Assembly: GCA_963663765.2 (NCBI GenBank)
Contig: CAXXUA010000013.1
Coordinates: 696,396-760,395, forward strand
Direction of reading: 5' to 3'
Length of the DNA stretch: 64,000 nucleotides
DNA from: Candidatus Poribacteria bacterium
GTDB taxonomy: Bacteria; Poribacteria; WGA-4E; WGA-3G
The notes beneath the pieces are model-generated. The model saw nothing but the letters and a program-made list of their open reading frames with translations, made no database searches and was not told the DNA's origin. Each line of letters starts with the position of its first letter. Position 1 is the first letter of the stretch. Both the position numbers and the translations under genes were made by a program. Below are positions 19,021-56,372 of this stretch, one piece after another.

Positions 19021-19045
19021 TGTAAATCTTTGATGTCTGGCGGAA

Positions 19046-19138
19046 TCAGAATAAGGTGGGAGACGATGTTGTCCCTGGCGAACTAACAATATTTTTAGCG
19101 TCTTCTGCCAAAAAATTGAAGTAATCTTCAATTTGCAT
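19046..19138 (-). pseudogene. DUF433 antitoxin 5' remnant
   Basis: GGAGG + MQIEDYFNFLAED then unrelated sequence; 36/40 bp match to 32841-32880. Confidence 0.7.
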
Positions 19139-19161
19139 GGTATACCTCCCTTCCTACTATA

Positions 19162-19718
19162 CAGATGCATTCAATTGTCGGCTTTTGCGGATTTGGGTGC
19201 GGCATCGCGAAAATCGCGGATTTCACGGAATACACGGAAAAGATACCCACAATAAAACGCATTGGTAAGGAAAATGGTTATTCTTAGCAACAAATCATGA
19301 TGTAGGTGCCTTTTCCGCGTCTTCTGTGTTTTCCGCGAATTTCGCGATGCCGCAAGAGTACATTTTGACAATTGAATGCCCCTGGTTGGCGGGGTTTCTA
19401 ACCCCAGTGGTTTGAGCCAAAACTTGCAAATCGGGGTTAGCCCCCCCAACAATAGAGAAATGGGATTGGGTAACCGCTAAATTGACGCATAGGGTGTGGG
19501 TTATATTATACCTAAATAGTGGTATGGGTTTGTTGTGTTTTCTGCTTTGAGAACAATAGAAATCATGTCCAATCTATTGGGATTCTATTGTTGAAATGTC
19601 TTCTAACAAAGTATCTTTGTTGGCGGGGATTCTAACCCCGATATTAGAGTGCCACGGCATAAAATCGGGGTTGGAAACCCATTCAACAATAGCGAAATTC
19701 GACAATTGAATACCTCTG
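19162..19718. mobile_element. Composite MITE with CAG..ATTCAATTGTC TIRs and 6-bp TSD
   Basis: ACTATA at 19156-19161 and 19719-19724; CAGATGCATTCAATTGTC / GACAATTGAATACCTCTG; internal extra TIR near 19367-19384, long inverted repeat 19200-19352 and GGGGTTTCTAACCCC hairpins. Confidence 0.75.
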
Positions 19719-19822
19719 ACTATAGTATTTTTAGCAGTTGCTTTTTTCTGACGGTTTCTGATACAATATCAGGTGTGTAGATCTGAAAACTCTGGCGTAA
19801 CTTGATTCTGGGGAGAAAATTC

Positions 19823-20146
19823 ATGGAACAAATGAAGACTGCAGATATTCATGACAAGGTCTTTGAGGAAACCTATACCGCCCACATCCAAAGAAACGGT
19901 GCGAACTGGCTTGGTCGGATACCAGACGTTCCAAAAGTCAAATGTGAAGCACCTACAGAAGCCATACTTCTGAAAACCCTTGAAAAAAAACTTCATGAGG
20001 CACTCATCGCCGAAGAAGAAGCGTGGGAGAAGCAATTTGAGGAAGACGTGAAAGCCGGACGGCTGGAACACCTTGCCGAGAAAGCTATTAAAAATTATAG
20101 AGAAGGCAAATACCGAAGCGTAGACGAACTACAGAAGTTATTGTAG
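19823..20146 (+). CDS. Putative antitoxin (HicB-like N-terminus plus WEKQFEEDVKAGRLE tail)
   Basis: YTAHI...WLGRIPDVP HicB-like segment; directly upstream of a RelE/ParE-like gene. Confidence 0.7.
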   Translation: MEQMKTADIHDKVFEETYTAHIQRNGANWLGRIPDVPKVKCEAPTEAILLKTLEKKLHEALIAEEEAWEKQFEEDVKAGRLEHLAEKAIKNYREGKYRSVDELQKLL

Positions 20147-20147
20147 T

Positions 20148-20399
20148 ATGGAACATATTCTTGATGACGATTTTTGGGATGCCTACGCAGAACTTCCGCT
20201 GAATGTCCAAAGACGCATCCCTCAGAAATTTCAACTCCTTCGGCAAAATCCCAGACATCCTTCTCTCCGTTTTAAAAAGGTTGGAGCCCTTTGGGCAATC
20301 CGGGTGAGTAGAGGCTACAGGGCCTTGGCCCGTGAAGAAGAAGGGAATTTCATCTGGTTTTGGGTTGGAACACATGCCGAATACGAGAGACGGATTTGA
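20148..20399 (+). CDS. RelE/ParE-like toxin
   Basis: FW..Y..LP, NPRHPSLRFKK, YRAL, WFWVGTHAEY. Confidence 0.85.
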   Translation: MEHILDDDFWDAYAELPLNVQRRIPQKFQLLRQNPRHPSLRFKKVGALWAIRVSRGYRALAREEEGNFIWFWVGTHAEYERRI

Positions 20400-20426
20400 T
20401 AACATGCATAATCCAAGAATGTCAAA

Positions 20427-20620
20427 CTAAGGTCTTGCTGCTTTCTGCTCGACTCCCCCAAATTTCTTTGCTCCAAGGAAAACACCGAATTCCAAAGGCA
20501 TATTGAAGCGCGGAACACCCGAATTCTCGTCTAATTCCGTTCTAGAGATGTCATGAATACCATAACGACAATCCGCAATGGTGGTGTAAATCTTATCAAT
20601 GTGGACCTGACTTGCATCTA
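20427..20620 (-). pseudogene. Internal fragment of a nucleoside 2-deoxyribosyltransferase/TIR-like protein
   Basis: IDKI...CRYGIHDISRTELD...PRFNMPLEFG.FLG motif with both ends missing. Confidence 0.55.
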
Positions 20621-20820
20621 CTGTATTCTTATTGAAGTGGGACATAAACGATTTGGTCAATATATTCGCCTTCAAACGATGCACCAGCAATGAGAATCAA
20701 CTGTTCAATAATTAATCCTATTGAGACATCAAGATTAATCGTGAAAATACCCGGCACATGGTGCCCTGCTGCAAGATGGTCAGCGAGGTGTTGCGGCATA
20801 CTTTTCCGATTGTTAGTTAT

Positions 20821-22242
20821 CAAGAATCACGACAAAACCCCTACCTTTAGGTAGTGGGATGTAGTCGTGCTAAGTGCTTGTGTCAAGAAAAAACTTGATT
20901 TTTGGTTTAAAACATGAGATACTCATTATACCAGTTCAGTGTAGGTGCTACTAACACCTACACACCTTTAGTAGAGGGAACTGACGTCTTCATAGGACTG
21001 GAATATCATCATGCTAAAAACACATAAGATTGCATTGAATCCAAATAACAATCAACGAAAATGGTTTGCACAACAGTGTGGCTATGCGAGATTTGCATAT
21101 AATCATGCATTAGCAGATTTCAAGTCTGCATTGGCAAATGATGAGTTCTTATCCGCTGCGAAGTTAAACACTCGATTTAATATTGCTAAGAAAGCACATG
21201 CTTGGACTAAAGATATGGATCAGGTTGTAGCCAATAAAAGCATATTTGGTAACTTGTCTGCTGCGCTTGCGAATTGGGTTGGTAAGCGTGCGAGATTTCC
21301 GAAGTTCAAGAAGCGTGGCAAAAAGGACGCATTCACCACAAATAATCAATCTGTAGAAGTTGAAGGCAAGCGTATCAAACTTCCTAAGATTGGTTGGATT
21401 AGCATGTTTGAATCATTGCGTTTTGTGGGTAAGATTATGAAAGTGACGATCTCAAGGACAGCACATCGTTGGTTTGTATCTATCACCATAGAAACAGAGG
21501 ACACCGAAGCAGTTGATAACTCAACGCACCCTGTGATTGGTATAGATGTAGGCATAAACACACTTGCCACATTGAGTGATGGCACGAAATATGATAATCC
21601 AAGACCCCTGAAACGATATGAAAAGAAGTTAGCAAGAGAACAACGTAGATTAAGTAGAAAAGTTTTCAAGTCTAACAACTGGTTCAAACAAAAACACAAG
21701 TTAGAACGTATCTACTATCGTATCGCTTGTATCCGAAACGATGCACATCATAAAGCAACTACAGAGATTGTCAACCTCGCATCTGCGATCGGTATTGAGA
21801 CACTCAAGGTTACTAATATGCTGAAGAACAGAAACCTCGCAAAAGCATTGTCAGATACAGCATTAGGCAGTTTCCTGCTAAAACTCAAGACAAAAGCAGA
21901 AGTGCACGGTATACCTGTCAAAGAAGCAGATCAGTTCTTTGCAAGTAGTAAAACCTGTTCCGGTTGTGGACACAAAAAGAAAGACCTAACACTTTCAGAA
22001 AGAATGTATCACTGCAGTCAATGTGATATGTCTATAGATAGAGATGTCAACGCTGCAATAAACTTGAAACCAACTACGGTGGGACACACCGAAAGTCACG
22101 CCTGTGGAGTGCAAATAAGACCCAACGCTGTTCAGGAAAGGGCACGAGACACGGAAGCAGGAAAAGTCGTTTGGAAACAACTCAAACTGTTTCCAATATA
22201 AGAACTAAGAACCCCCATGCTTTAGCTTGGGGAGTATGTCAG
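20821..22242 (+). mobile_element. IS200/IS605-family (tnpB-only) element, copy 2
   Basis: Follows TTAT 20817-20820; same ends as copy 1; precise removal restores the DUF5615 frame. Confidence 0.93.
21011..22201 (+). CDS. tnpB: RNA-guided endonuclease TnpB
   Basis: GIDVG, IETL, CSGC/CSQC, DRDVNAA; D-E-D triad intact. Confidence 0.93.
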   Translation: MLKTHKIALNPNNNQRKWFAQQCGYARFAYNHALADFKSALANDEFLSAAKLNTRFNIAKKAHAWTKDMDQVVANKSIFGNLSAALANWVGKRARFPKFKKRGKKDAFTTNNQSVEVEGKRIKLPKIGWISMFESLRFVGKIMKVTISRTAHRWFVSITIETEDTEAVDNSTHPVIGIDVGINTLATLSDGTKYDNPRPLKRYEKKLAREQRRLSRKVFKSNNWFKQKHKLERIYYRIACIRNDAHHKATTEIVNLASAIGIETLKVTNMLKNRNLAKALSDTALGSFLLKLKTKAEVHGIPVKEADQFFASSKTCSGCGHKKKDLTLSERMYHCSQCDMSIDRDVNAAINLKPTTVGHTESHACGVQIRPNAVQERARDTEAGKVVWKQLKLFPI

Positions 22243-22412
22243 TAAGCTGAAATCGTGCTGCTCACACCACTTTAAGATTTCGGGGTCTTTAGTGCTTCTT
22301 GCAGGAGCACCTTCGTTACCAATCTTCAAGACCGTTAATGATGGTTCATGGTAAAGTAATTGCGTCTGGTAGATTGGTGGAATATGTTCGTCTAATAGAT
22401 ACCGACGCATCT

Positions 22413-24014
22413 TTATTCCTGTTCATTTTTGGATGGGGATGGTTTTGTAATTGCTGAGATACTTTTTGGAATGTCCATCGGTGAGCTATCAGAAACATTC
22501 TTTTTTTCCGCAATAAGTTGACGTAGTCGAACAACACCGGGTGGCGGATTTTTCTCGTATTCCTCCCGAAAGATTTGGCTGTATTGGAGATTATTTGCTA
22601 AATAACTCCCTATTTTTATTGGATTTTGAAGATAATAAAGAATCGTTGCGTAAACCTCTTCCAATGTCAGCGTCTCATAGCGTGCAATAATCTCCTCCGG
22701 TGTTTGTGACAGATGAAGAGACTCGTACAGGACAGTGTCAATACCGATACGCGTGCCTTTTATCCGAATATCATCCTCTGATAAAAAATCAAAGTTTCTT
22801 TCAAAAGGATAGAGTTGTTCGTATACTTGGATTTGTCTGAGAATACGGTTTTCGACAGGGAAAAATAGTGTGCGCTTATTTTGAATTAGATATTCAAGTT
22901 GGCTCAGGACTTCGTGACTATCCCGTCCGGATGTAAGTCCAGCTAATAAACCTAACGTTACAAATTTTAGCTGGTTGTACGGAATCTGTTCTTCCCATAT
23001 TTTAAAGAGAAAATCAGTAGCCATGTTTAATGCCTTTTGCTGACTCATTCTCTGTTCTCCGAAGGCTTGAACTAAGCTATTGTAGGGTTCAGCGAGGTTC
23101 CAATTTGCTTGTTTTAAAGCTTCCATTAACGTGTCTGTCCCAAACTCTGTGTGATAGTAGTGAAAACAAACAAGCTGAATTGCCATTTTACTGTACTCAG
23201 TTTTATCAAGTACATTTTGATTTAGGCAATGTTCCAAAACAACTTGTGTCCACACACCGTCAATTTGGAAATTTGTTCCAGCGTCACTATTGAAGCTTGT
23301 TTCTGCATAAGTTCTGAGCCGCCCATCGTCCGAAAGGAGTAGGTATCCTGGCTGACTTGCGATAAGAAGGGTATCCAAAAATAACGGTTGAAGCATGTCA
23401 TCTAATTCCTTTTTGCGGAGTTGATTCATTTGTAGTGCAGTAGTGCATGGAATGACCTCACAGTTTTCCCTAATCCATTTGATAAGGTTTTTTAGAAGTT
23501 CTACGTTGCATTTTATATCTTTAGGATTGATCATGTGTCTTACATACTGGTTGCCTTGTTTCTCAATGCTCATCTCTTCTTTTTTTTGGACAATTTGTAG
23601 TAGTTCATCAATAGTTGATTGTGAAATGCAGAGTTTTCCAAATACCTTGACAACGGTATCGGCAGCTTCTAAACAGTGTAAGGTGGTGAGGGATATGAGA
23701 TCCGCAACAAGTTTGGGCTTTGGATCGTTAAGTAAAGCAAGTGCTTGAGCCCTTTCTTCTGCACTGCCGATACAACACCTAATTCCCAAGTCAGGTTTGT
23801 TTATGAGGAGACTCCACACGTCTAACACATTGCGCCCCGTCCAACCCATGAAGACACCGATTGGGGGTTGGTGTTCTTTATATTTATTTTCAATCTGGAG
23901 CGAGGTTTCATGTCGTTTATTGGCAGCGTCAAATAACGTTTGAAATTTTGTGCCTTCAGAATCGTCTCCCAGGATTGTATCTTGGATAGACCTATTTTGC
24001 TCGCTTACTCCCAT
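22413..24014 (-). CDS. PIN-domain protein fused to a C-terminal DUF433 domain
   Basis: LVADLISLTTL and LLLSDDGRLR PIN-like motifs; C-terminal DDIRIKGTRI...TPEEI..RY.TLTLEEVYATILYY is DUF433. Confidence 0.75.
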   Translation of the reverse strand: MGVSEQNRSIQDTILGDDSEGTKFQTLFDAANKRHETSLQIENKYKEHQPPIGVFMGWTGRNVLDVWSLLINKPDLGIRCCIGSAEERAQALALLNDPKPKLVADLISLTTLHCLEAADTVVKVFGKLCISQSTIDELLQIVQKKEEMSIEKQGNQYVRHMINPKDIKCNVELLKNLIKWIRENCEVIPCTTALQMNQLRKKELDDMLQPLFLDTLLIASQPGYLLLSDDGRLRTYAETSFNSDAGTNFQIDGVWTQVVLEHCLNQNVLDKTEYSKMAIQLVCFHYYHTEFGTDTLMEALKQANWNLAEPYNSLVQAFGEQRMSQQKALNMATDFLFKIWEEQIPYNQLKFVTLGLLAGLTSGRDSHEVLSQLEYLIQNKRTLFFPVENRILRQIQVYEQLYPFERNFDFLSEDDIRIKGTRIGIDTVLYESLHLSQTPEEIIARYETLTLEEVYATILYYLQNPIKIGSYLANNLQYSQIFREEYEKNPPPGVVRLRQLIAEKKNVSDSSPMDIPKSISAITKPSPSKNEQE

Positions 24015-24087
24015 CGATTTCTACCCCTATCAAAAATTTCTTTCACAGTGCTTTTATCAATTTTTCTATTGCTATTTTTATTTTGTC

Positions 24088-24116
24088 ATTATAGCATATT
24101 TCTGCTGCATAGTCAA
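24088..24116 (-). promoter_or_regulatory. sigma70 promoter of the PIN-DUF433/DUF5615 cassette
   Basis: TTGACT-17 nt-TATAAT with extended TG. Confidence 0.7.
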
Positions 24117-24169
24117 GATAAAAAAGGTTTGCGTTAGAATGATTATAGTAAGCGATTTTAACAACTAAC

Positions 24170-24286
24170 TTAACCACCATACCAACTCGGAAAAGCAATC
24201 CCCTTCCGCTTAAGCATCACCAACTCCGTATCAAGATCACATGTAGACTGTTTCCCGCCGTGGATACTCGGCTCAGCTCAGAGCAT
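24170..24286 (-). repeat. Displaced 3' end of the Type IIG RM gene, copy 3
   Basis: 91/100 bp match (hand count) to 29391-29490; encodes ML*AEPSIHGGKQSTCDLDTELVMLKRKGIAFPSWYGG*. Confidence 0.95.
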
Positions 24287-24337
24287 AATGGAAATCTCTA
24301 ATGCCTGAATCAGGATTTCATGAGGGTTATGAGTGAA

Positions 24338-25201
24338 TTAAATTGCAGGATTCCACGATACCTTTTCGCTATCAGGTATGATCTTTTTTTCCCAATGCAA
24401 TAGTTTGGCAATAGGTCCTATATCGTCATCAGGTATATCCTGGAGGTACAGCAATTGGAAAAGAGCAATTCCTATATTTTCAAGGAACATGCTATGAGAG
24501 TCAAGAGCCTCATATTGGGGTAGTCTGCCACTAAAAGTTACTGTAAGTCCGCCCTGAATATATCCGTTTGTAACAAGTTCAAAACAATCGTGTAACAATT
24601 TTGATAGTTCTAAGGAAAATTCTGGCTCAAAAGAAGTAAGAAATTCTTGACCTTTTTCTCTTCTACCAACCATGCTCAAAATACAAAGTTGTTGATATGT
24701 AAGTTGTTCTGCAGATTTTATAATTTTATGGCTTAAATCTGCACTGATTTCTTGTTCAAAAACAGTGTTTACATAAACGTTTGAAATATACCGGATTTTC
24801 TTCTCTTCTGGTTCTCTTTGACATTTTAATATAACATTTTCAAGAATTTCTTCGTCTTTAGACCTGTCAGAAAAATCTTTATCAAAAAAACCATCTTCAC
24901 GAGGTTTCTCACCTTTTTCTAAGCGTTGGCGAATCCCAGCTAGAGCAAAGGCAAAAGCGGCACCTGCTCTGATCTTCTCGCGTGGTCCAATCATTCGTTC
25001 CAAGATTTCATTGCCGATTTTCCTGAATCCAATCTGAATCAATTTACTACCGACACTAACTCCAATCGTTGTGACCGGATCTCCGCTCAGCAAACCTGCT
25101 GCCAAACCGCTAATAGCACTACCTGTTATCTCACTAGAGGTTTCAATAAGTTGAAGAACTCTATCATTTTTAGCAGAATTCTTTTCAAAGTTTTGAGTCA
25201 T
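24338..25201 (-). CDS. Hypothetical protein, possibly DUF4393/Abi-alpha-like (paralog B)
   Basis: Gly/Ala-rich hydrophobic N-terminus, EDGFF..DRSK, EEKKIRYI, LTYQQLCIL; homologous to upstream neighbour. Confidence 0.6.
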   Translation of the reverse strand: MTQNFEKNSAKNDRVLQLIETSSEITGSAISGLAAGLLSGDPVTTIGVSVGSKLIQIGFRKIGNEILERMIGPREKIRAGAAFAFALAGIRQRLEKGEKPREDGFFDKDFSDRSKDEEILENVILKCQREPEEKKIRYISNVYVNTVFEQEISADLSHKIIKSAEQLTYQQLCILSMVGRREKGQEFLTSFEPEFSLELSKLLHDCFELVTNGYIQGGLTVTFSGRLPQYEALDSHSMFLENIGIALFQLLYLQDIPDDDIGPIAKLLHWEKKIIPDSEKVSWNPAI

Positions 25202-26018
25202 TCCATAATTCCTCCAGTATTGAGTCTACATCTTCATTAGGAATATGATCCAATTTTGCAAATTTGAACATGTTTTCGCTAAGGATATTAGAAAACCCTA
25301 CCGAGTTGGCAAATCCGGGATATACAGGTGATTTATCACTATTAGTCCACAGACTTTCGGCAAAAGAACCTAAATACAATTCATGAATTTTTTCCATAAG
25401 TGGATTGCTGGGATTAATAAGTCCTCTATCTCGAACCTCAATACAATCTGTGAGGATGGATGATAAGTTTTGCGTAATATTTGGATTGCCTAAACTATCT
25501 AAATCAATTTGGTCTGCATTCATAAGTAATTTTAGAATACACAGTTGACGATAACTTAGTTCATCAAGATTTTTTAAAATACGACGATACGTATCTATAT
25601 CAAAATCTGAATCAAAATGAACGTTTTCTGTTAAATTTGCTATATATTTTATTTTCGGTTCTTCTGTTGTATCCATCACTTTTTTTAAAGTAGATTCTAC
25701 AACTTCGTCTATTTTGGACCGATCGGTAGGGGTTTTTTCAAAGAATCCATCATCCCGAAATTTTTCACCATTTTCTAATCTTTGAGATATATTTTCTGCT
25801 GCTTGTATTCCCCATTGAAATAATCTTACAGTTTGTCTTTTACTTATAAGTGGAGTGATAAATCTGTCTAAACCCCATCCACCAAACACACTAATAGCTC
25901 CAGTTGATATCCCAGTTGGGTCTCCAATAGAAGTGCCAACTGCTATCCCTGATCCTAATGCAATTAATTGAAAATAGGGAAATCCTTTCGCTTCTTTTTC
26001 GTCTTTAATTAGGTTCAT
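25185..26018 (-). CDS. Hypothetical protein, possibly DUF4393/Abi-alpha-like (paralog A)
   Basis: DDGFF..DRSK, EEPKIKYI, LSYRQLCIL; GGAGG SD; overlaps paralog B start. Confidence 0.6.
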   Translation of the reverse strand: MNLIKDEKEAKGFPYFQLIALGSGIAVGTSIGDPTGISTGAISVFGGWGLDRFITPLISKRQTVRLFQWGIQAAENISQRLENGEKFRDDGFFEKTPTDRSKIDEVVESTLKKVMDTTEEPKIKYIANLTENVHFDSDFDIDTYRRILKNLDELSYRQLCILKLLMNADQIDLDSLGNPNITQNLSSILTDCIEVRDRGLINPSNPLMEKIHELYLGSFAESLWTNSDKSPVYPGFANSVGFSNILSENMFKFAKLDHIPNEDVDSILEELWNDSKL

Positions 26019-26088
26019 TTCAATCCTCCTTTTTCATTGATTTACCTCTACAAAAAACCAATATCCAAATATCGAATCTCGTTTAATA

Positions 26089-26199
26089 TTATTCCTTATC
26101 ATACCAATTCGGAAAAGCAACCCCCTTCTTCTTAAACATCACCAATTCCCCATCAAGATCACATGTAGACTGCTTCCCACCGTGGATACTCGGTTCAGC
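26089..26199 (-). repeat. Displaced 3' end of the Type IIG RM gene, copy 2
   Basis: 88/100 bp match (hand count) to 29391-29490, 49 bp identical; encodes AEPSIHGGKQSTCDLDGELVMFKKKGVAFPNWYDKE*. Confidence 0.95.
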
Positions 26200-26238
26200 C
26201 CTTTCGTGTTTCAGAATAATACGATCTGTTAGTATTGT

Positions 26239-27816
26239 CTACTTTCGGTCAAATATACATTTACGAAGTTCCTCGTAGACCTTAGTTTCCTTCGTGATAC
26301 ATTTTGAGAGACTCTTTTTAAACATATCTGTACTGATGTTTGTTTTAATACCACAAAACTTTTTTATCCGTTCAATTTTATCTTTCACGTTCTGATTACA
26401 GATATCCGTTACAAAGTTATCATAGTCTTCCTCACTGAACATTAAACCTTCAGACTGACAGTATTTTACCAATATTTCTTTGTCAAAGAGATAATTTTCT
26501 AATTCCCAACGTCTGAGAATACGATGGTGAAATGGAGTATTAGCTAAGTGATTCTGGCGTTCGGATTCATTAATTGATTTCCCTGATCCTATATCACGAT
26601 CTTTGAGAACCCATATCTCTATTCCTTTGAGCACTTTCCCAAGAATATCTATTGCAATGTCACTGCGTTGGTCCGGTTCAGTATTTCCTCCGCTTGATAC
26701 AAACACCGTATCAGAAAAATCAGCAGAAAAGATATTTTCATAGATTTGTGCGTCGAACCCTTTTTCGATTCTGTTTGGTCCTGGTTTTGCCCTACCCTCA
26801 CAGTAGATAATACGATTTGGAGCAACTAAATCTGTCAAGTCGTCAAGTGCTGTCTTAAAAATTCTCATGTAGTTTTTACGAATTGGTTCTATCGGTCGTA
26901 TTGTTTGAGTTCCTGTAAAGTAGTCCTTCTCTGAGAAGTCTAAAATTTGAGAATCTTCTTTTAATTCGTTCTGTAGTGCCCGAATAAATCCTATACTGTG
27001 GGTCGCAACCCACAGTTGGCAATGATCAGATATTAATTTGTTAATCTCAACGAGGAGTTTGCGCTGAATAGTAGTGCTTAAATGCAACTCTGGTTCATCA
27101 ATACAACATAGCGTATTTGTAAACTCATCTGATTTGATTACAAGATCAATAATCATGTCAACAACTTCTTTTTCTCCTGCTGATAGGTTGGCAAAAGGAA
27201 AATCAATGGTGTTACCCTTTTTAAAATATATCTGTCCCTTTTCGTTCAAAGGTTCTCCTAAACTCGATATTTGGACATCAAGAATATTCATCAAGATACT
27301 GTTTACCTTCTCAATAAAATCACCGTGGATTTGGTCACCTGTTTTTTTTCCTCTATTGTATTCTGAGTATAAAACAGAATGTAATCTTTCGTAATTATTC
27401 AAAAGACGTTGATCTACTGCAATTGAACTAATAGGATTATTTTTATTGCTACGTGTCTCCTTGATAGATTTGATTCCTGTCCCCTCAATTTTTGGAGTAT
27501 AACGGTATGACGTTCTGAAGTAAAACCCCTGTGCATGCTGATTTTCTTCAGCGAAATTTACTTCTACACTTTGCCTTTTGTATTGCTCATTTTCAGGATC
27601 TGCATCATAAAATTGGGATTTTGAATAGAAATCTGCAGCCTCAGCTCCTCGCGAACTTCCAATCTGTATTTTTTGTTTAAAGCCATCATATACCGAGCTC
27701 TTTCCACAGCCATTGGGACCGACCATAGCAACTATTTTTTTCGGATTTGGACCAAGTTCAATAGTTAGATCATCAAATCGTTTGAAGCCAGTTAATCTTA
27801 CTGTTTGTACTCTCAT
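26239..27816 (-). CDS. ABC-type ATPase with C-terminal TOPRIM-like domain (OLD-like nuclease)
   Basis: GPNGCGKSS, LSAGEKE, IDEPELHL, ATHS; IIYCEG, KDRD, ELENYL. Confidence 0.82.
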   Translation of the reverse strand: MRVQTVRLTGFKRFDDLTIELGPNPKKIVAMVGPNGCGKSSVYDGFKQKIQIGSSRGAEAADFYSKSQFYDADPENEQYKRQSVEVNFAEENQHAQGFYFRTSYRYTPKIEGTGIKSIKETRSNKNNPISSIAVDQRLLNNYERLHSVLYSEYNRGKKTGDQIHGDFIEKVNSILMNILDVQISSLGEPLNEKGQIYFKKGNTIDFPFANLSAGEKEVVDMIIDLVIKSDEFTNTLCCIDEPELHLSTTIQRKLLVEINKLISDHCQLWVATHSIGFIRALQNELKEDSQILDFSEKDYFTGTQTIRPIEPIRKNYMRIFKTALDDLTDLVAPNRIIYCEGRAKPGPNRIEKGFDAQIYENIFSADFSDTVFVSSGGNTEPDQRSDIAIDILGKVLKGIEIWVLKDRDIGSGKSINESERQNHLANTPFHHRILRRWELENYLFDKEILVKYCQSEGLMFSEEDYDNFVTDICNQNVKDKIERIKKFCGIKTNISTDMFKKSLSKCITKETKVYEELRKCIFDRK

Positions 27817-27978
27817 TATTTATCTCCTTGCGAAATTAATTGAATTTCTCTGTTATTAACATTAACCTAATTCTTATACAATCAAAGAAGGCGGAACACC
27901 AATTTTTGTAAACTGGATTAGATACACTACAACAATTACTTTCCATTATTAAAGTATTGACTAAACTATACATTTATA

Positions 27979-28007
27979 ATTATATCATTAGACTAATAAA
28001 ATGTCAA
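27979..28007 (-). promoter_or_regulatory. Full-consensus sigma70 promoter of the OLD-like gene
   Basis: TTGACA (28007-28002), 17 nt, TATAAT (27984-27979), extended TG. Confidence 0.8.
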
Positions 28008-28124
28008 GGGAAAATTCAGAAATTCCGAAAATATTTTATATTTTTTTAACCTTTACTTAGAAATTGTTTTGTAGTATACTATATCGGTGTATGTTATGAA
28101 CCCGATAATAAAAGGAGAAAAGCT

Positions 28125-28526
28125 GTGGAACTAGGTGAACGTCTTCGTTCCATTCGTAAAGAAAAGAACTTAACTTTAAAAGATCTGAGCGAACTTGCAG
28201 AATTGTCGGTTCCATATCTTTCAGATATGGAACGCGGAGAAGTAAATCCATCCATAGAATCTTTAAAAAAGGTTGCGAATGCTTTCAAAATGACAGTCAG
28301 AGATCTTTTTACTGGTGTAGAGAAATTAGGAGAATCAAGACCAGAGCCTTATCCTAAAGGATTTAAAGAGTTTTTAGATGATCCTGAGTTTTCTGAAGAA
28401 ATTGATGATGAATGGAAAGGATTTCTAATTGAGATGAATTTTCGAGGTGAACAACCTACCACAAAAAGAGAATGGATCGAGTTGCATCTCAATCTTCGAC
28501 GCACATTTTCACAGGAGAACAAATGA
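28125..28526 (+). CDS. XRE-family HTH transcriptional regulator
   Basis: LGERLRSIR...LSVPYLSDMERGEVNPS. Confidence 0.9.
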   Translation: MELGERLRSIRKEKNLTLKDLSELAELSVPYLSDMERGEVNPSIESLKKVANAFKMTVRDLFTGVEKLGESRPEPYPKGFKEFLDDPEFSEEIDDEWKGFLIEMNFRGEQPTTKREWIELHLNLRRTFSQENK

Positions 28527-29371
28527 ATAGTCTTAATGAACATGTAATCAAAATGGTTCAAAATACTGTTAGCGAATATAGTTCAACGGAGAACGCGAAT
28601 TTTGAGGAAATATGTTCCGGTTTAGGCATAGATGTGAAGGAAGCATCTCTATCACTAGAAATTGATGGAATGCATAAAGGAAGTACCATATTTATCAACA
28701 CACGGGTCCAAAATGAAGAACGAAAAAGGTTTACCCAATTCCATGAGATCACACATTACTTGCTTGAGAAGGATGGATATTTAATTTCTGAACTTCACGA
28801 TCTCACCTTCAGTCAAGAGGGGGAGTACGATAAGCAATTAGAAAAATTATGTAATTTTGGGGCTGCTGAATTTTTGATGCCAAGTAAAGAATTTATAAAC
28901 CTTTATGTAGAAACGGGTTTTAATGTTGAGTTGATTCTTAGTGCTGCCGAATATTTTAAATCTTCAACAATTGCTGCGACAATCCAACTTGCTCAAGTTG
29001 CGCCAAATCAATGTATTACGGCTATTTGCGAATTTATGCAGGATAAAAGAACACCTTTGCAATCACAGATTTTAAATCAAAATGAAAAATCCCCCAAGCG
29101 ACAATTGCGTGTATCCTATGCTGCTTCGTCACCAAATGTAAGATATATGTTGGCAAAAAATACTGTCATTCCTTATGACCATCTGATTTATGATGCTATT
29201 GGACAAGACAATCCTGTTGAAGGGGATAGTAATGTTCCTTTTCGAAGTGGTAAAAAGATGCCATGTCGTTGTGAAGCATTAGCAGAGAGGAATCGGGTGT
29301 ATGTAATATTTCATTTGAGTCCTCCGACATCTACAAATGAAATGCAAATCAATTTATTTGACTCGTCGTAA
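28523..29371 (+). CDS. ImmA/IrrE-family metallopeptidase
   Basis: RFTQFHEITH (HEXXH), EKLCNFGAAEFLMP, C-terminal GAF-like region; ATGA overlap with XRE stop. Confidence 0.9.
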   Translation: MNSLNEHVIKMVQNTVSEYSSTENANFEEICSGLGIDVKEASLSLEIDGMHKGSTIFINTRVQNEERKRFTQFHEITHYLLEKDGYLISELHDLTFSQEGEYDKQLEKLCNFGAAEFLMPSKEFINLYVETGFNVELILSAAEYFKSSTIAATIQLAQVAPNQCITAICEFMQDKRTPLQSQILNQNEKSPKRQLRVSYAASSPNVRYMLAKNTVIPYDHLIYDAIGQDNPVEGDSNVPFRSGKKMPCRCEALAERNRVYVIFHLSPPTSTNEMQINLFDSS

Positions 29372-29382
29372 CCTACAAGTCT

Positions 29383-32373
29383 TTACTTATCATACCAACT
29401 CGGAATAGCAATCCCCTTTCGCTTAAGCCCCGCCAACTCCGCATCAAGATCACATGTAGACTGCTTCCCACCGTGGATACTCGGTTCAGCGCAGAGCATC
29501 TCACGCAGAGTCTGCATTGACTCAAGCACGTTATCACTTGTGATGCCCAACACCTCAGTCAGCAGACAACAATCTAATTCCTCGCGCACAGGGTCATGCG
29601 CGCACTCGTTGACAGGCAGCATCCGTTTGGACTTCAAACGTTCAAAAATTGACTCTGCGTTTGCTAAAGCCGCATCGGTGAGTTCGCGAACATCCAACGT
29701 GGGCAAATTTCTCAATGTTGTAAGCCTTATTTTACCACGTCCAGAAACCTGTTTCCCACTATGCAACCAATGACAAAACAGTCCCAATGTTGAGTTACAC
29801 CAGAGTGTCCACGGAATCTCATATCTCGGATTTGCAAAAGCTACATTCGTTATCAAGGCTGGACCGATAGCAGGTTTTTCAGTGAAAAGGACTACCACTG
29901 AATTAGAAGTAAATCTTAGCATCATGTTGTAATGCGTCCTGCTGTTTCGATTTACTCGATTTTGCACTTTAGTTTCTGCATTCGGAACGGGAATTGCGTG
30001 TGAATCCGGGAGTACAAGCATTGATCTTTGAACTTCGCTCTTTGCATTCCACAAGCAAGCGTACCCATATTCGTTGGGTTGAAATCCTTCAACTTTACGA
30101 AACACACCTCTAACCTCAGCCAATCCCAAAGTCGCAATATCTCCAACTTGGCAAATTGGAATCTCAATAGCCTTTTCTTGTAGTTCCTGTAGCGGTAGTT
30201 CTAATTTGCCTTCTTTTAGTCGTCTTGCAGATTGAAGTAATGCCATTGATTTCACACGCACAGCAACCCACCCTTCACCACGAGGTAGTGGACAATCAAG
30301 CATATATCCGAGAGTTTCCTCTCCGACCTTTATTGCATCGCCGCCACTTGGTGTATCTTCTAATCGGTACATTCCGTTAATTCGGATGATTCTGTTTGTA
30401 ATCTCAAACGCCTCAAGTAAACTTTTTGGACGTTGATTTAGACAGACAAACTTTCCACGTCCCGTATTATCACCTTTTCCTTTTGTTGCTACGATGATGC
30501 ACTCTGCCATATCCGTATCAGCAGAGAAAGCACAGTCAAACCCTTTAGCCTCAGCAATAGTTATCACAACCACATCATGATATGCAGTTGACCACATATC
30601 ACGTAGTTTCTGAGTAGTTGGTGAAGCAAGCACTGTTGCTGGAAGGATAAACCCCATTGTACCTTTGGACTTAAGCATTCTATGTGCCAATTCTATAAAG
30701 TAGGCACTTAGGCCCGCTTGTCCATCTGCGACAAGTGTGTCCTTTTTCTTGAGAACAGTTTGCATTATTTTTGTATATTCTTGAGGTCGGTCACTGCCTT
30801 GGAACGGGGATTTAGCACCATCTATGCCTGCGGGGTCTGCCCCCGGTTTCGTAAAAGGTGGATTCTGAATAACGACATCAAACTTTTTGTAAGGAAATTC
30901 CTTTTGAAGATCAACAACCCTATTTTCTTCACCACCAACTTGTTCACTTTCCGTTTCAAATAGCTTCATATCATCAAGCAATTCAAGTGAACCTACTGCG
31001 TAATCACCATTGTCTAATTTACCGTAAGGAGCAGTAAGGATACGCGTACCACCAAGTTTCATATCAGCATATCTACTTGCAAGTGCAGCAGCAGTAAGGT
31101 GTGTAGCATTCGGCATAATATCTACACCGCCAATGTTTTCCTCTAACATTTTCTGATGGATATCCCTACCATTTCTACCCGCTTGTTCATACAGAGACAA
31201 AACGCGTTGATAGACACCGTTAAGCAGCGCACCTGTGCCGCAAGCGAAATCTGCAACTTTCGGAAGTTTCCCTTTCGGCAGTTCGGGCATCACAAGCGTA
31301 GACAGCAGCACCGCACTTTCCGGGAGCGTATAGTTCGCCTTTACGTATTTCCTATCGGTAATTAACTTTTGAAACACGATACCCGCGAGTTCATGAATCT
31401 GCGCGATACCGGTATCAACAAGGTCTTTGGCAGCCTCACACAGAAGCCTTAAGGTATGTTTGACAAGTCTGTCATCGGTAGCGAGTGCCTCAACGAGATT
31501 CCGAGCATCTTCAAAAATGGGACGGTAGTTAACCTTGAGGATTGTGTTCCAGTCATCAATAACATCGGCATAATCAATTGTCGGTAGGAGTTGGCGGAGT
31601 GAGCGGACAGATTCCATCTCTGCTTTACCAGCAAGGGAACTTTGGAAGACAAAAGCATCAGTGATAATTAGTGCTGCCATACGGAGCGTTTGGATGTTCG
31701 GTTTTTCTTCCGAGTTATCTTCCTCTTTAGAGAAAACCTCTTGGTGCAGAATTGTCTCAACCTTCTTGGCAATAACAGGATGGTCTACGATAGCATCTTC
31801 AAGTAGGTATGCTGCCTTGTTGACGCTTTTCTCCATCTCTTCAGCTGCCGCTTCAAGGTGAGAGTTCGGCATTGCACCGACGCGGAGCGCGTTTGCGATG
31901 TCGCCTACGGTGCCTTTTGCCCATCCGTTTTCTGGAAAATGTCCTACGGTATCACCGACTGTATTGACAAGTTTGTATTGTAGGTCATCTGCAGTGCGTA
32001 GTTGTGGATTGATATCCTTTCCCGGTATCATCTTAAAACGGTCAGGATAAAGGATTGCCATGACGTTGTTGAGCGTTTTTCCAACGACGTGGTATTCTGT
32101 TTCAAGCTCAAGTACAAGTCTCGTTTCCGCTTGTTCTATAAGATTTTTTGCGTTAGTGGTAGTAGCAAACTTTGCTTCAATACCGACAGGTTCTCTACCG
32201 TGTTCAATTACGATTGCATCAAGTTCGTTATTGCCTTTGAGGAAAGCATTGACTTCGGTTTCGAGTTCCCATCCGTGACGCATGTGACGTAAGATATTCA
32301 CTAGTTCATTTGTGATTGTTGTTTCGCGTCTTTTTGGCATAGCGTTTATAATTTCATTTGCGGTTTTTTTCAT
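29383..32373 (-). CDS. Type IIG restriction-modification enzyme (nuclease + N6-adenine MTase + TRD)
   Basis: N-terminal ELDAIV...IEAK PD-(D/E)XK, motif I VADFACGTGALL, motif IV NPPF. Confidence 0.85.
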   Translation of the reverse strand: MKKTANEIINAMPKRRETTITNELVNILRHMRHGWELETEVNAFLKGNNELDAIVIEHGREPVGIEAKFATTTNAKNLIEQAETRLVLELETEYHVVGKTLNNVMAILYPDRFKMIPGKDINPQLRTADDLQYKLVNTVGDTVGHFPENGWAKGTVGDIANALRVGAMPNSHLEAAAEEMEKSVNKAAYLLEDAIVDHPVIAKKVETILHQEVFSKEEDNSEEKPNIQTLRMAALIITDAFVFQSSLAGKAEMESVRSLRQLLPTIDYADVIDDWNTILKVNYRPIFEDARNLVEALATDDRLVKHTLRLLCEAAKDLVDTGIAQIHELAGIVFQKLITDRKYVKANYTLPESAVLLSTLVMPELPKGKLPKVADFACGTGALLNGVYQRVLSLYEQAGRNGRDIHQKMLEENIGGVDIMPNATHLTAAALASRYADMKLGGTRILTAPYGKLDNGDYAVGSLELLDDMKLFETESEQVGGEENRVVDLQKEFPYKKFDVVIQNPPFTKPGADPAGIDGAKSPFQGSDRPQEYTKIMQTVLKKKDTLVADGQAGLSAYFIELAHRMLKSKGTMGFILPATVLASPTTQKLRDMWSTAYHDVVVITIAEAKGFDCAFSADTDMAECIIVATKGKGDNTGRGKFVCLNQRPKSLLEAFEITNRIIRINGMYRLEDTPSGGDAIKVGEETLGYMLDCPLPRGEGWVAVRVKSMALLQSARRLKEGKLELPLQELQEKAIEIPICQVGDIATLGLAEVRGVFRKVEGFQPNEYGYACLWNAKSEVQRSMLVLPDSHAIPVPNAETKVQNRVNRNSRTHYNMMLRFTSNSVVVLFTEKPAIGPALITNVAFANPRYEIPWTLWCNSTLGLFCHWLHSGKQVSGRGKIRLTTLRNLPTLDVRELTDAALANAESIFERLKSKRMLPVNECAHDPVREELDCCLLTEVLGITSDNVLESMQTLREMLCAEPSIHGGKQSTCDLDAELAGLKRKGIAIPSWYDK

Positions 32374-32406
32374 GTGACAGTTCAGAGCAATTATTTTGTA
32401 AATATT

Positions 32407-32435
32407 ATTTTAACATATATAATTTTCTTTGTCAA
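32407..32435 (-). promoter_or_regulatory. sigma70 promoter of the RM gene
   Basis: TTGACA-17 nt-TAAAAT with extended TG. Confidence 0.7.
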
Positions 32436-32527
32436 GAAAAACTATATTTCGTTATATCATTGTATTCTTATTTAAACTTGTCCGCTCTTGAATTCTTGAA
32501 CCGCAGTAAAATTCACTTTTGGTGTTC

Positions 32528-32878
32528 TCAACGACATGTTGTCTGGACTAAGAAATTCAGGTTTTGTCTTTTGTCCTTTATGAGTTGACGTAGTCAAAGA
32601 ACAGCGGGTGACGGATTTTTCGCCTGTTCTTCTCGTGCCTTTCGGCAGTATCCCAAATAATCCTCCAAATATGCACCAACTTTTTCTTTATTTTGCAGAT
32701 AATATAGGATTGTGGCATAAACCTGTTCTAGGGAAACCGTATAGTTGCGATCATCAATCTATTCTGGAGTTTTTCCATTGTAAATATAATCGTTCAGGAC
32801 AGTTTCAATACCTATACGTGTTCCCTTGATACGAATATCGTCTTCTGCTAAAAAGTTGAAGTATACTTCAATTTGCAT
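32528..32878 (-). pseudogene. DUF433 antitoxin pseudogene
   Basis: MQIEVYFNFLAEDDIRIKGTRIGIETVL..TPE* then frameshift to VSLEQVYATILYYLQN, second stop at 32594-32596. Confidence 0.85.
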
Positions 32879-33199
32879 GGGGCAACTCCGTAGTTTTAAT
32901 AAAGTCAATAATATTTGTTATTATAATTATATCTTTAACCCGTTAGAATATCAAAGTATTTATCTCCTCAGGATGTGTAACGTTTCTTGCCAGTGTGTTG
33001 CCTGAATTGCGTGGTATGTCAGAACCACTAAATCAGCGGATTGAATGTCTTATGGCATTTCGCGTAAGACATTTACTGGGTTTTCAACACCGATTATATG
33101 AACATTCCCTCTTAAATCGGGGTTAAAAACCCCTCCCACAAGAGAAACACCAACACTTTTTTCTAAAAATTAACACCTATGGTGTGTTGTGATTCTTGT

Positions 33200-33328
33200 C
33201 CCAACCGTGGAATATTTTAGTTGTTTTTTCGTGTTTTTTTGCATTTTTTTCATAATCGTTATAGATCCTGCCGTGGTATAGATTAATGTCAGTTTTCATT
33301 TTTTGAGAAATATTGAAAAAAACAACTA
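33200..33328 (+). repeat. Dispersed repeat with TTAGTTGTTTTTT / AAAAAAACAACTA inverted ends
   Basis: Homologous to 56519-56680 (same strand) and ~41725-41865 (opposite strand). Confidence 0.7.
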
Positions 33329-33516
33329 TGATGAAATTTGAAAATAAGTTTACATTCTACAATTGACCATATTGGTTGTCATGTAAGAATCGTATTCTTT
33401 TCTTTGGTAGGAGCGACCTCCCGGTCGCGACTGTTTTGATACATGGTCCCTATACGGTCGCGACCAGGAGGTCGCTCCTACCAACGCGAATGTGTAATTA
33501 ATTCCATGATCTACCA
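33329..33516. mobile_element. TA-flanked MITE carrying a GTAGGAGCGACC REP doublet
   Basis: TA at 33327-28 and 33517-18; removal restores AAAAAAACAACTAAAT as in the other copies of the host repeat. Confidence 0.75.
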
Positions 33517-33948
33517 TAAATATATTATTGGTATATATCATAAGTGGTTTTGGATGTGATTTGTAGTTTTTTGGTGATTGTTTAATGGGATCTCCAACAG
33601 ATATCCAATAGGTTTGTGAGAATAGGTTATCGCCTTTTAGCTGTCGTTTATCAATCAGATGACTGATTGCGATAATATCAGAATCGCAGAAGATGCTGAA
33701 GGTGTGTTTGGGTATCTAAATTTCTTTCATAGTTTAAGAATTCTTGCGATGCAATTGAATGTAGTTCATTAAGATGCTCTTCAGCGACTCAGACAAAACA
33801 CAGAAAAGATCTTCCAGACAACACACATCTTCCAGACAACACACCTTAACACCCAAATATTTTCGAAAAATATTATACGTAGAAAACTATTGACAAAATA
33901 TGCAAATTTTGATATGTTGATATAACATTTAATAAAGGAGGAATTACC

Positions 33949-34733
33949 ATGAAAAAGTTAATGTTAGCCTTATTCATCATCTTGATAAGTAGCACTTTTG
34001 CCGCTGCAGACCTATTAGATGGCTTGGTGTTTTCTATGTCATTTGATGAAGGAACTGGTACAGAAGCAATGGATGGGTCTGCAAACGGTTTTACAGGAAC
34101 AGTCAATGGAAATGCGCAGTGGGTTGAAGGCAAATTTGGTATGGCTCTTGAATTCAATGCATCCGCTGATCATGTAGCCATTGCGGACAATGATGCGTTT
34201 CATATAGAAGATGAGATCACGCAAGCTGCGTGGGTCAAACTCAATCGTTTGCCGGGTGCACATGCGGTCATCTTTGGTACGCGCGCAGGTGGTGGTGCAA
34301 GGCACATCGGTTTCGGTTATGGCATGAACCCCCCTCAAATGGCATCAAGGTTTGGACCAACGGTGCTAACGGTGGGTTCAAAGATATCAACGATACTGTT
34401 ACCCAACTTGAAGTCGATAAATGGTACTATGTATCATATACCCACACCACGGAAAACAGCGGCAAAGTGAAAATTTATGTTGATGGTGTAGTGTCATCTG
34501 AACATGATTCCGGCAATCCCGTTGCTCCCGCAGGGGTTACGAGTCAAATTCAGATTGGAACTTGGTCAAGTGAAGCGTTGCCTGGTTTTGTAGATGAGGT
34601 GCGTCTTTGGAATCGTGCTCTTTCTGATGCTGAAATGGCAGAGAGCATGAATGCTGTGGGTGATAATCTCTTAGATGTCAGTCCAAATGACAAACTCGCT
34701 ACATCTTGGGGGTTAATTAAGAAGACACGTTAA
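33949..34733 (+). pseudogene. Secreted LamG/concanavalin A-like protein, frameshifted at a C6 run (34329-34334)
   Basis: Signal peptide, FDEGTG, GKFGMALEF; continues in another frame to VDEVRLWNRAL...KLATSWGLIK; one extra C restores the frame. Confidence 0.85.
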
Positions 34734-34752
34734 TAGTCTATGAAAAATGAAT

Positions 34753-34780
34753 AGGCGGCATTATTGCCGCCTTTTTCTTT
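34753..34780 (+). terminator. Intrinsic terminator
   Basis: AGGCGGCA-TTAT-TGCCGCCT followed by T-run. Confidence 0.85.
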
Positions 34781-34791
34781 GTGATGGTAAA

Positions 34792-35497
34792 ATGGTAAAA
34801 TACGAACTTATACCATTTTCATGTGATAATGTCTCATTAGCAGCGGAAATCTGGTAGGAGCGACCTCACGGTCGCGACCGGGAGGTCGCTCCTACCGAAG
34901 AGAGTAACCCCCTGCCAGTAAACAGTTGAATTCCTTAATGAGACAAGATTTATTTGAATTGGTATTATATTGAAACGTCTTGAAAAAACTGCAAAACAAT
35001 ATACCAATATTGCGCCTGAAAACGGGCAATTTCTATCCATTCTCGTCCGTTCAATTCAAGCACAACATGTTCTTGAAGTCGGCACTAGCAACGGATATTC
35101 TTCGATTTGGATTGCTTCGGCATTGAAACAGACAGGTGGACATCTGATTACATTAGAGTATGATCGTAAACGTGCAGCAGAAGCACAAGCACATCTCAAT
35201 GAAACAAGTTTTTCTGACATTGTAGAGATACGAGTTGGAAATGCAATTGGCGAAATCCCAAAGTGTGAAACTACTTTTGATCTGGTGTTTCTTGATGCAG
35301 AGAAGAGCGAATATTTGCGTGATCTTGAGTTGGTGTTACCGAAGATCCGCTCAGGGGGTTTGGTTGTAGCAGATGACACCGTGACGATGCGTGATGAAAT
35401 GCTGGATTATGTGGACTTTGTTTTCAACACGCCACTGCTAAATTCTGTTGACATTCCGTTGGATGATGGTATAATTCTAAGTTATAAAACTGATTAG
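34792..35497 (+). CDS. O-methyltransferase (class I SAM) interrupted at codon 7 by a MITE; possible restart at TTG 34970
   Basis: VLEVGTSNGYS, FDLVFLDAEK, GGLVVADD; MVKYEL+ILKRLEK is in frame after removing 34811-34967. Confidence 0.8.
34811..34964. mobile_element. 154-bp MITE (TACC-type TIR), TTA TSD
   Basis: TTA|TACCATTTTCA...TGAATTGGTA|TTA; internal REP GTAGGAGCGACC...GGTCGCTCCTAC. Confidence 0.85.
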
Positions 35498-56000: not shown

Positions 56001-56009
56001 GGCTTATTG

Positions 56010-56361: not shown

Positions 56362-56372
56362 GGCTTAATGGA

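Follow-up and report, generated by a model that had tools for sequence, protein, structure and literature searches.

Sequential displacement as a possible origin of defence modules stacked behind three 3' ends of a restriction-modification gene in Candidatus Poribacteria

How defence islands gather unrelated systems is an open question, and most of the known routes use integrases, satellites or transposons. In tandem accretion at gene 3' ends the gene stays intact and some of the units are without an integrase; these arrays have short repeats at a fixed position, and a cognate integrase is encoded by one or more of the units or by relatives. The present work concerns a stretch of 64,000 nt from a Candidatus Poribacteria bacterium (contig CAXXUA010000013.1, positions 696,396 to 760,395; hereafter the window), in which modules with a putative defence function, as judged from their sequences, are stacked behind three copies of the 3' end of a Type IIG-like restriction-modification (RM) gene. 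Two groups of described loci come close to it. For orphan immunity arrays at type VI secretion system (T6SS) and Rhs loci, the passages of PMC5361080 on these arrays propose homology-facilitated illegitimate recombination and note a likeness to integrons without an integrase. The part of the work of Furuta et al. (PMC2853133) that deals with RM rearrangements reports long direct repeats (over 30 bp) flanking RM insertions without mobile-element genes, as well as recognition-domain substitution and allelic diversity in a Type IIG gene. We put the probability at about 0.5 that the RM locus, which is polymorphic and part of a defence island of Candidatus Poribacteria, acquired the stack in the window by sequential displacement.

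The stack, its tails and related loci

In the sense of the RM gene, the order is RM-T1-A-T2-B-T3-C, followed by a TnpB element, a gene fragment, a ParE-like pair, three small open reading frames (ORFs), Omp85 and PEPCK. The G+C content is ~35% at 24-29 kb and 40-42% around it. Boundary positions are given in nt relative to the motif shared by the tails (GCTGAA of 'AEPS' = 0; minus = upstream), and the features of the stack are as follows:

29383..32373, minus strand: intact RM gene, 996 aa, with an Eco57I-type methyltransferase core, Type IIG-like
29383-29499, minus strand: tail T1, the last ~110 nt of the RM gene (repeat search, blastn)
26239..29371, mixed strands: module A, IrrE/M78, XRE and a divergent AAA_21 ATPase (Pfam)
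26092-26208, minus strand: tail T2, an orphan RM 3' end with homology from the GCTGAA motif of 'AEPS' (boundary 0)
24338..26018, minus strand: module B, the two paralogues B1 (25185-26018) and B2 (24338-25201)
24170-24295, minus strand: tail T3, an orphan RM 3' end with homology from 9 nt upstream of the motif (boundary -9)
22222..24014, minus strand: module C, a PIN-TPR-GreABC+DUF433 fusion (22413-24014) and a DUF5615 5' fragment (22222-22410) (Pfam)

The original prediction, made from the letters of the window, had named three direct copies of the RM 3' end, each with its own stop, and both the repeat search and blastn bore this out. The copies are 109 nt long, belong to one repeat family (24178-24286, 26100-26208 and 29391-29499) and are all in frame, ending in ..PSWYDK, ..PNWYDKE and ..PSWYGG before their own stops. 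In blastn the RM tail matched 24178-24286 with 90.8% identity over 109 nt (E 8e-40) and 26092-26199 with 88.0% over 108 nt (E 6e-35). A fourth copy was sought throughout the 64 kb by blastn and, with the tail peptide, by tblastn, and none was found; nor is there a decayed tail at 32965-33300, ahead of a DUF433-like pseudogene upstream of the RM gene. The sequence ahead of T2 and T3 is unrelated to the RM gene. The tails follow the stop of the preceding gene after 30 nt (ATPase-T2) and 42 nt (B2-T3), and the intergenic regions that hold T2 and T3 measure 220 and 323 nt. When the B2-T3 junction was compared with a related locus, L015, the homology ended near the B2 stop and was followed by 42 nt of unique sequence.

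The RM protein has a PF07669 match (Pfam, residues 412-604, E 4e-13) and more than 1700 homologues, and all of the full-length ones among the 120 listed have the AEPSIHGGK...FPSWY end. In the homologues the conserved block MQTLREMLC/AEPSIHGGK crosses the 5' edge of the repeat uninterrupted. Because full-length homologues share the end and this block spans the repeat edge, the tail is a genuine part of the RM protein. A methyltransferase domain of the Eco57I/gamma class is present in a single long polypeptide, so that the protein appears Type IIG-like; in the PDB it matches PglX/BrxX only, and there only the methyltransferase portion (E 5e-7). A D...EAK motif was spotted by eye near the N-terminus of the translation, no nuclease family was matched in Pfam, PADLOC or NCBIfam, and the nuclease activity is putative. 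In sliding identity plots the gene consists of a conserved 5'/middle block (85-92%), a variable block (50-65% between types) and a 3' block that is again conserved, with 80-92% over the last ~300 nt. The variable block, which is probably the target-recognition domain, lies ~360-1400 nt ahead of the tail motif, and the conserved 3' block begins near -320.

Related loci were collected by a degenerate AEPSIHGGK pattern scan of species-representative genomes, with one genome per species. At least 102 loci were obtained, the window's own record lying outside this set, with flanks of up to 2 kb on each side for 80 loci and of 300 nt for 22. The loci with the RM-tail motif are labelled L001-L102, and L020b stands for the orphan tail at L020. 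Accessions of the main ones are: L020, JAJEJA010000024.1; L043, JAPPCZ010000034.1; L030, JAPPES010000101.1; L027, CAZURU010000083.1. Among the matches listed, nearly all loci are from Candidatus Poribacteria metagenome-assembled genomes (MAGs), with a few Chloroflexota and two Alphaproteobacteria, and the top DNA matches to the window are from Poribacteria, with 92-93% identity. The AEPSIHGGK motif is common to several RM subfamilies with differing extreme ends. RM genes with ..LCAEPSIHGGK.. were seen in Poribacteria, in Chloroflexota (Dehalococcoidia, Anaerolineae, Phototrophicaceae) and in two alphaproteobacterial MAGs, a taxon spread which hints at inter-phylum exchange of these genes; they are multi-copy per genome, with four loci on OY282383.1 as an example.

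The three tails differ from each other at 9-12 of 99 nt. T1 and T2 are not near-identical: they differ at 12 of 99 positions, all of them within 50-99 and with states seen in functional alleles, and their first 49 nt are identical. If the differences were spread evenly, such clustering would have a probability of ~3e-4, for a split chosen post hoc. In T2 and in T3 32 of the 33 residues are each found among 106 functional tails, the exception in both being residue 17, which is Ala in 98 of the 106 and is altered in T2, T3, L020b and L056. Since the residues of T2 and T3 are seen in functional tails and the T1-T2 differences fall in one half, the orphan tails derive from other functional alleles and not from the in-place decay of a T1 copy.

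The modules of the stack are found elsewhere directly behind intact RM genes. For module A this is the case in L064 (IrrE-XRE-ATPase, 70% nt identity over 1.7 kb), while at L007 and L022 this place is taken by IrrE/XRE genes and at L008 by the ATPase. The B1 gene follows an intact RM tail in L040 (75.7% nt identity over 996 nt), L001, L098 and L089, a B2-type gene lies behind the RM tail in L015, and a third B clade was present at six loci of another RM subfamily among the matches listed. The three clades of B proteins match RM subfamilies or types, thus B behaves as a long-term RM partner. Gene C follows an intact RM tail in L060, with 92.7% nt and 90.9% aa identity. L040, L001, L060 and L022 share the variable-domain type of the window and carry B, B, C and A, respectively. 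By these comparisons each stacked unit is best described as an ordinary 'RM + partner' unit elsewhere. The idea of free cassettes, which was part of the original prediction, does not agree with the same module types standing behind intact RM genes and with B clades that match RM subfamilies.

The Omp85 side of the island is reached by L043, with L030 continuing alike, and by L056. In L043 and L030 the order is RM-tail-DUF433(-DUF5615)-fragment-ParE pair, and A, T2, B, T3, the N-terminal part of C and the TnpB element are missing, so the content behind the RM genes does vary among relatives, as had been predicted. Compared with the RM gene of the window, the genes of L043 and L030 are 85-92% identical in the conserved blocks and 50-63% identical in the variable block, and the flanks are 92.6% identical. 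Since the recognition domain differs while the flanks are alike, the head gene is probably not simply the old resident gene. This speaks against the view that the enzyme was simply kept, the recognition-domain region being 50-63% identical between flanks of ~93%. Among the matches listed, T3 is nearest to the RM tail of L043 (94 of 99 nt), to which T1 and T2 each score 89. The farthest tail thus looks like the leftover of the resident RM gene, by a small margin, and the predicted order, newest nearest and oldest farthest from the gene, fits this affinity. Also upheld from the original prediction are the reading of the copies as displaced 3' ends of the RM gene family and the intactness of the head gene.

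Among the 103 motif matches listed from the at least 102 loci, 20 had an interrupted upstream frame: four frameshifted full-length genes, three internal deletions and 13 5'-truncated remnants. The listed remnants start at 0, -9, -17, -29, -53, -83, -86, -167, -179 and -218, with L053 at 0, L027 at -9, L020b and L056 both at -17 and three loci of one subfamily at -218. All of these starts are inside the conserved 3' block of the RM gene, and no remnant of between about 350 and 2000 nt was among the matches listed. Where at least 1.7 kb of upstream DNA was available, non-RM genes preceded the remnant in 8 of 9 cases, and an intact RM gene only at L020b. The genes upstream were ABC-3 permeases, tricorn protease, a sulfatase, an NHL-repeat protein and PhyH, further a lipoprotein-like gene, another Type II RM pair and a glycosyl-hydrolase-like/dockerin gene. 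Remnants thus arise through loss or replacement of RM bodies, and not only behind an intact gene. L056 and L072 carry the same tail and module F with boundaries at -17 and -53, which is not as expected of a cassette with fixed ends. A fixed entry site had been claimed for the window, with variable boundaries named as what would speak against it; this claim does not agree with the remnant starts, which run from 0 to -218, with one partial tail at +48.

A second full tail within 2 kb was seen only at L020, where the ParE pair sits between the intact RM tail and the orphan tail. Apart from L020, no two motif matches lay within 10 kb on one contig (both statements among the matches listed), and the three-tail stack is therefore unusual. 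At L027 a full orphan tail is followed ~320 nt further on by a partial one, with its start at +48. Behind this partial tail comes an ORF of 524 aa, a relative of which has its place downstream of an intact RM gene at L047. There are thus remnants too short to contain the search motif, and the scan overlooked them. L020 and L027 (full and partial tail) are the only such cases among the matches listed, and stacks are therefore rare.

The domain scan of the window covered 63 ORFs, including every non-nested ORF of at least 150 aa, and none of the 63 had an integrase, resolvase or recombinase domain, which upholds the earlier remark that no integrase is in view. In the flanks of up to 2 kb of the 80 loci, 81 representatives out of 189 ORFs of at least 70 aa were scanned (cluster representatives and singletons of at least 95 aa), and neither these nor 14 ORFs upstream of interrupted RM genes contained a tyrosine or serine recombinase. 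A recombinase encoded elsewhere is compatible with these searches, which spanned the 64-kb window and the 2-kb flanks. As candidate attachment sites, neither tRNA nor tmRNA genes were found in the window, and the region 24170-29520 had no match in either the plasmid or the phage collection in the distant mode. No RNA family matched the window at the gathering score; two sub-threshold matches to microRNA models fell in 17000-35000. On both strands the tails fold no better than shuffled sequences (z -0.16 to +1.37), that is, they form no attC-like hairpin. The integron-like array of the original prediction was borne out in part only, and integron features are absent: there is no IntI-type recombinase and no attC hairpin, the module A genes are divergent, and the modules have their own promoter-like sites. 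A diversity-generating retroelement was also rejected, as the window ORFs have no reverse-transcriptase domain, the mismatches involve all bases and the tail is conserved in homologues.

Sequential displacement and its alternatives

The anatomy of the stack, the module homologues behind intact RM genes, the variable boundaries, the recognition-domain difference and the lack of recombinases in the DNA examined were observed directly. In sequential displacement they would be connected in the following way. The RM genes have conserved ends around a variable recognition domain, and each usually has its own partner module directly downstream. Pairing between an incoming RM gene, which brings its tail and partner module with it, and the resident one would take place in coding sequence that is conserved or of the same type, and the non-homologous far end of the insert would be joined illegitimately inside the last ~100-330 nt of the resident gene. 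The body of the resident RM gene would be lost, and its 3' remnant and partner genes would be shifted one step downstream, where the displaced partner genes could persist, independently transcribed. Two rounds of this process, or one import of a ready stack, would yield RM-T1-A / T2-B / T3-C with the newest unit beside the gene, and a dedicated recombinase would not be required. Later homologous recombination from tail to tail could delete or spread units, and it very likely acts on such stacks as well. We infer the recombination route (homology-anchored pairing with illegitimate joining) and the number and order of the events.

Several observations weigh against this account. The affinity of T3 to L043 means 5 versus 10 mismatches in 99 nt, a small margin, and the recognition-domain difference could stem from a separate domain swap. 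In the subfamily of the window the boundaries are tight (0, 0, -9, -9, -17, -17, -53, -86), and -9 is the exact position of three junctions whose upstream DNA is unrelated, the ATG of '..REMLC' being kept. An unguided illegitimate join would be expected to scatter the boundaries more widely than this. L020b and L056 have upstream sequence and boundary in common and differ in downstream context, a pattern that a mobile unit with a defined end would equally yield. Among the sequences compared there was no high-identity pair of donor and recipient in which microhomology at the junctions would show; the comparisons cover a 2-kb flank per locus and one genome per species at the at least 102 loci.

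These points lead to explanations in which the tail itself takes an active part. The tails could be portable homology and not leftovers of displaced genes: circles of tail and module would arise from RecA-dependent tail-to-tail recombination in a donor stack and enter any genome that has an RM gene of the family by a single crossover in the ~110-nt tail. This possibility, which is unlikely on balance but could operate alongside sequential displacement, needs no dedicated recombinase and so fits the recombinase-free window and flanks; the direct repeats of 109 nt with 88-91% identity and a 48-nt stretch identical between T1 and T2, the ParE pair between the two tails of L020, and the junction common to L020b and L056 in different downstream contexts all speak for it. 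However, it leaves unexplained how the first duplication arose, why solitary remnants lie beside non-RM genes in 8 of 9 cases and why the head RM gene differs from its same-locus relatives in the recognition domain, and the boundaries of -17 and -53 at L056 and L072, with a common tail and module F, do not suit it. Direct repeats of the RM 3' end do flank the units, as they would in a site-specific island. An attachment site in the RM 3' end, served by a recombinase elsewhere, would let integrase-less elements that carry a replacement tail stack successively. The intact gene, the newest unit nearest to it, the compact gene-to-tail spacers of 30 and 42 nt and the three junctions at exactly -9, with 6 of the 8 tails of the window's subfamily within 17 nt, are all in accordance with this, and the clustering within the subfamily still leaves room for a fixed position. 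However, the position is 0 and -9 in the window itself and ranges from +48 to -218 elsewhere in the superfamily among the matches listed, most remnants are solitary, the window and the flanks of up to 2 kb at the 80 loci (81 representative ORFs) yielded no tyrosine or serine recombinase, the tails have no hairpin, the region 24170-29520 matches no plasmid or phage, and the modules are ordinary downstream partners of intact RM genes. We regard such accretion as distinctly unlikely. A bolder form of it, more doubtful still, would make the last ~110 nt a dedicated docking site in sponge symbionts, with units of tail and module as mobile cassettes that are captured and released by a distant recombinase or by a guided break at the tail start. 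The exact -9 junctions with their in-frame ATG would then mark the recombination point of a 'defence integron' built on coding sequence, with its recombinase acting in trans.

The remaining explanations need no movement of the tails. Three complete RM-led units could once have followed one another, with RM genes two and three later deleted or eroded beside downstream genes that were still useful. The continuous remnant lengths of about 60 to 330 nt, the ordinary size of the intergenic regions of T2 and T3 (220 and 323 nt) and the relaxed constraint at residue 17 in T2, T3, L020b and L056 are what erosion would leave; yet the matches listed include neither two full-length RM genes within 10 kb nor a remnant of about 350-2000 nt, decay would have to halt 30-42 nt past the preceding gene each time, and the best promoter-like site of module C lies downstream of T3, so that the tail is not needed for this. 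This course of events is improbable. It is also very hard to believe that alternative strain alleles of one locus were joined end to end at the shared tail during assembly, even if the source is probably metagenome-assembled and related strains differ behind the RM gene. The tails differ mutually (9-12 of 99 nt) and each orphan has a unique junction on its 5' side, alternative alleles would rejoin at shared downstream DNA and not at the tail start, and orphan tails occur in the independent assemblies of L020, L027, L053, L056 and L072.

Module contents and neighbouring genes

The genes of module A and the features around the stack are:

28472-29371, plus strand: IrrE/Peptidase_M78 gene (Pfam; PADLOC capP-like, 4.5e-23)
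28125-28526, plus strand: XRE helix-turn-helix regulator (Pfam; PADLOC capH-like, 3.1e-12)
26239-27816, minus strand: AAA_21 ATPase (Pfam; PADLOC AriAB 2.3e-21, PtuA 3.9e-19)
20820..22242, plus strand: TnpB-only IS200/IS605-type element, TnpB ORF at 21011-22201 (Pfam OrfB_IS605, Cas12f1-like_TNB)
19700..20819, no strand assigned: old downstream block, 92.6% nt identity to L043 and L030
20427-20690: 'MRSVHYTD' protein gene fragment, within the old downstream block
19802-20399: ParE-like toxin-antitoxin pair (ParE_like Pfam match)
32588..32964, minus strand: DUF433-like pseudogene with in-frame stops, just ahead of the RM gene and co-oriented with it

Most of the module labels in the original prediction (IrrE, XRE, PIN-DUF433 and DUF5615) were confirmed. 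'OLD-like' is just approximate for the ATPase of module A, because Pfam shows no TOPRIM domain in it, and Abi-alpha was not confirmed for module B, as PF14337 was matched by 0 of 10 members of the B family at E<=1. B1 and B2 are 31% identical (E 4e-33). No family could be assigned to B in Pfam, NCBIfam or PADLOC; the Atlas gave unnamed clusters and a weak Abi_alpha lead (0.85), and 3 of the 10 aligned members had weak glycine-zipper matches in Pfam (best E 0.083). The AlphaFold model of the family, made from 10 sequences, is all-helical with a mean pLDDT (predicted local distance difference test) of 63, and it matched no PDB fold at E<=0.001. B is an uncharacterised family of ~270 aa, and its genes immediately follow intact RM genes from two subfamilies, at L040, L001, L015, L028, L041, L044, L050, L062, L079, L098 and L089.

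The DUF5615 gene of module C is split by the TnpB element, with residues 1-58 at 22410-22237 and residues 37-119 at 20877-20632. L030 is without the element, and window positions 22243 and 20819 are adjacent there. TnpB was rejected as the agent of the stack: it is a separate insertion in DUF5615 that is missing from L030. A second TnpB gene is located at 1444-2610. The DUF433 pseudogene has 75-77% nt identity to the gene behind the RM tail in L043 and L030 and may be the trace of a further, older unit, though without a preceding tail.

The -9 boundary corresponds to the in-frame ATG of '..REMLC' (window 24287-24295), and T2 is without this ATG. In T3 the third codon counted from the ATG, the Cys codon, reads TGA. 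A short RM-tail peptide starting with ATG could be encoded at L027, L053 and L056, by prediction. No promoter-like site was found inside T1 or T2 by pattern matching. On the gene strand the site nearest to T2 is just upstream of it (26241-26213, a weak 9/12 promoter match), and a weak 9/12 match on the opposite strand (24261-24289) overlaps T3. A promoter within the tail was rejected as the reason for tail retention, since T1 and T2 have no internal site. Promoter-like consensus sites, as pattern matches only, are present at 28007-27979 and 24116-24088, the latter being a strong one before gene C and downstream of T3. The stretches 27974-28007 (before the ATPase gene) and 32921-32954 (before the DUF433 pseudogene) both read TTGAYA...17 nt...TATAAT and then TATAA.

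Outside the stack there are other genes of defence type, namely an SMC-like ATPase at 36988-38868, which scored as LmuB (PADLOC 8.5e-39), and a DUF3800 protein at 53-895. At the far island edge two overlapping ORFs (33949-34470 and 34230-34733) both match Laminin_G_3, which suggests a frameshifted gene. The 2.5-kb stretch 55650-58215 is poor in ORFs; it contains G+C-rich palindromes and 1.8 copies of a repeat unit of 192 nt. Another unit, of 31 nt, occurs at 57183-57213 and 57236-57266, with a reverse-complemented copy downstream of the B2 homologue in L015, and a 31-nt inverted repeat is present at 33404-33484. The 192-nt and 31-nt repeats and the palindromes may be elements of the repetitive extragenic palindrome (REP) or miniature inverted-repeat transposable element (MITE) type.

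Comparison with described systems

The locus suggests a recombinase-free route by which a defence island may grow, with a polymorphic RM gene with conserved ends as the landing pad. Since each RM replacement would leave the old partner genes in place, the island would gain one unit per replacement and date these events by position, the oldest unit being the one most distant from the gene. If this is general, short RM 3' remnants could be used to locate orphaned defence modules and to order acquisitions in uncultivated symbionts. No description of sequential displacement at RM genes was found in the literature searched, which was mainly in openly accessible journals.

As in an integron, the array is one-sided, consists of small gene units and has an inferred growth at the anchor end. 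Unlike in an integron, there is no IntI and no hairpin attC, the module A genes are divergent, the promoter-like sites are the modules' own, and what is repeated belongs to the coding sequence of the anchor gene. Direct 3'-end repeats between units are also seen in tandem accretion, with cis-mobilizable elements beside integrative and conjugative or integrative and mobilizable elements (PMC5704250) and the Dehalococcoides ssrA islands (PMC3146451) as examples; the locus differs in its variable boundaries and in having no recombinase in the window or in the 80 flanks. With the RM rearrangements treated by Furuta et al. (PMC2853133), in the part cited above, it shares the long direct repeats, the lack of mobile-element genes and the recognition-domain diversity. 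However, in those cases it is the RM genes that are inserted, between almost exact copies of a single-copy target, whereas here the repeats are the 3' end of the RM gene itself, 88-91% alike, and the inserts are other defence genes.

The likeness goes further with the T6SS effector-immunity clusters of Vibrio cholerae and with 'C-terminal displacement' at Rhs and contact-dependent inhibition (CDI) loci, as set out in the relevant passages of PMC5361080. There too a polymorphic gene has a conserved anchor, an incoming unit of gene and partner displaces the resident one, and the old partners form a growing downstream array. According to the same passages, a 3' remnant of the old gene is sometimes kept, no integrase takes part, and the orphans match intact pairs in other genomes. 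The locus described here differs from that account in its anchor, which is an RM enzyme, in the retained partners, which are modules of defence or toxin-antitoxin type and not immunity genes, and in the remnant, which is the conserved extreme 3' end and not a variable toxin end. An immunity-like selective reason for keeping the old partners is not evident here, compared with what is described for those clusters. If the route proposed for the stack is a general one, it would extend 'sequential displacement' from polymorphic toxin loci to immune loci.

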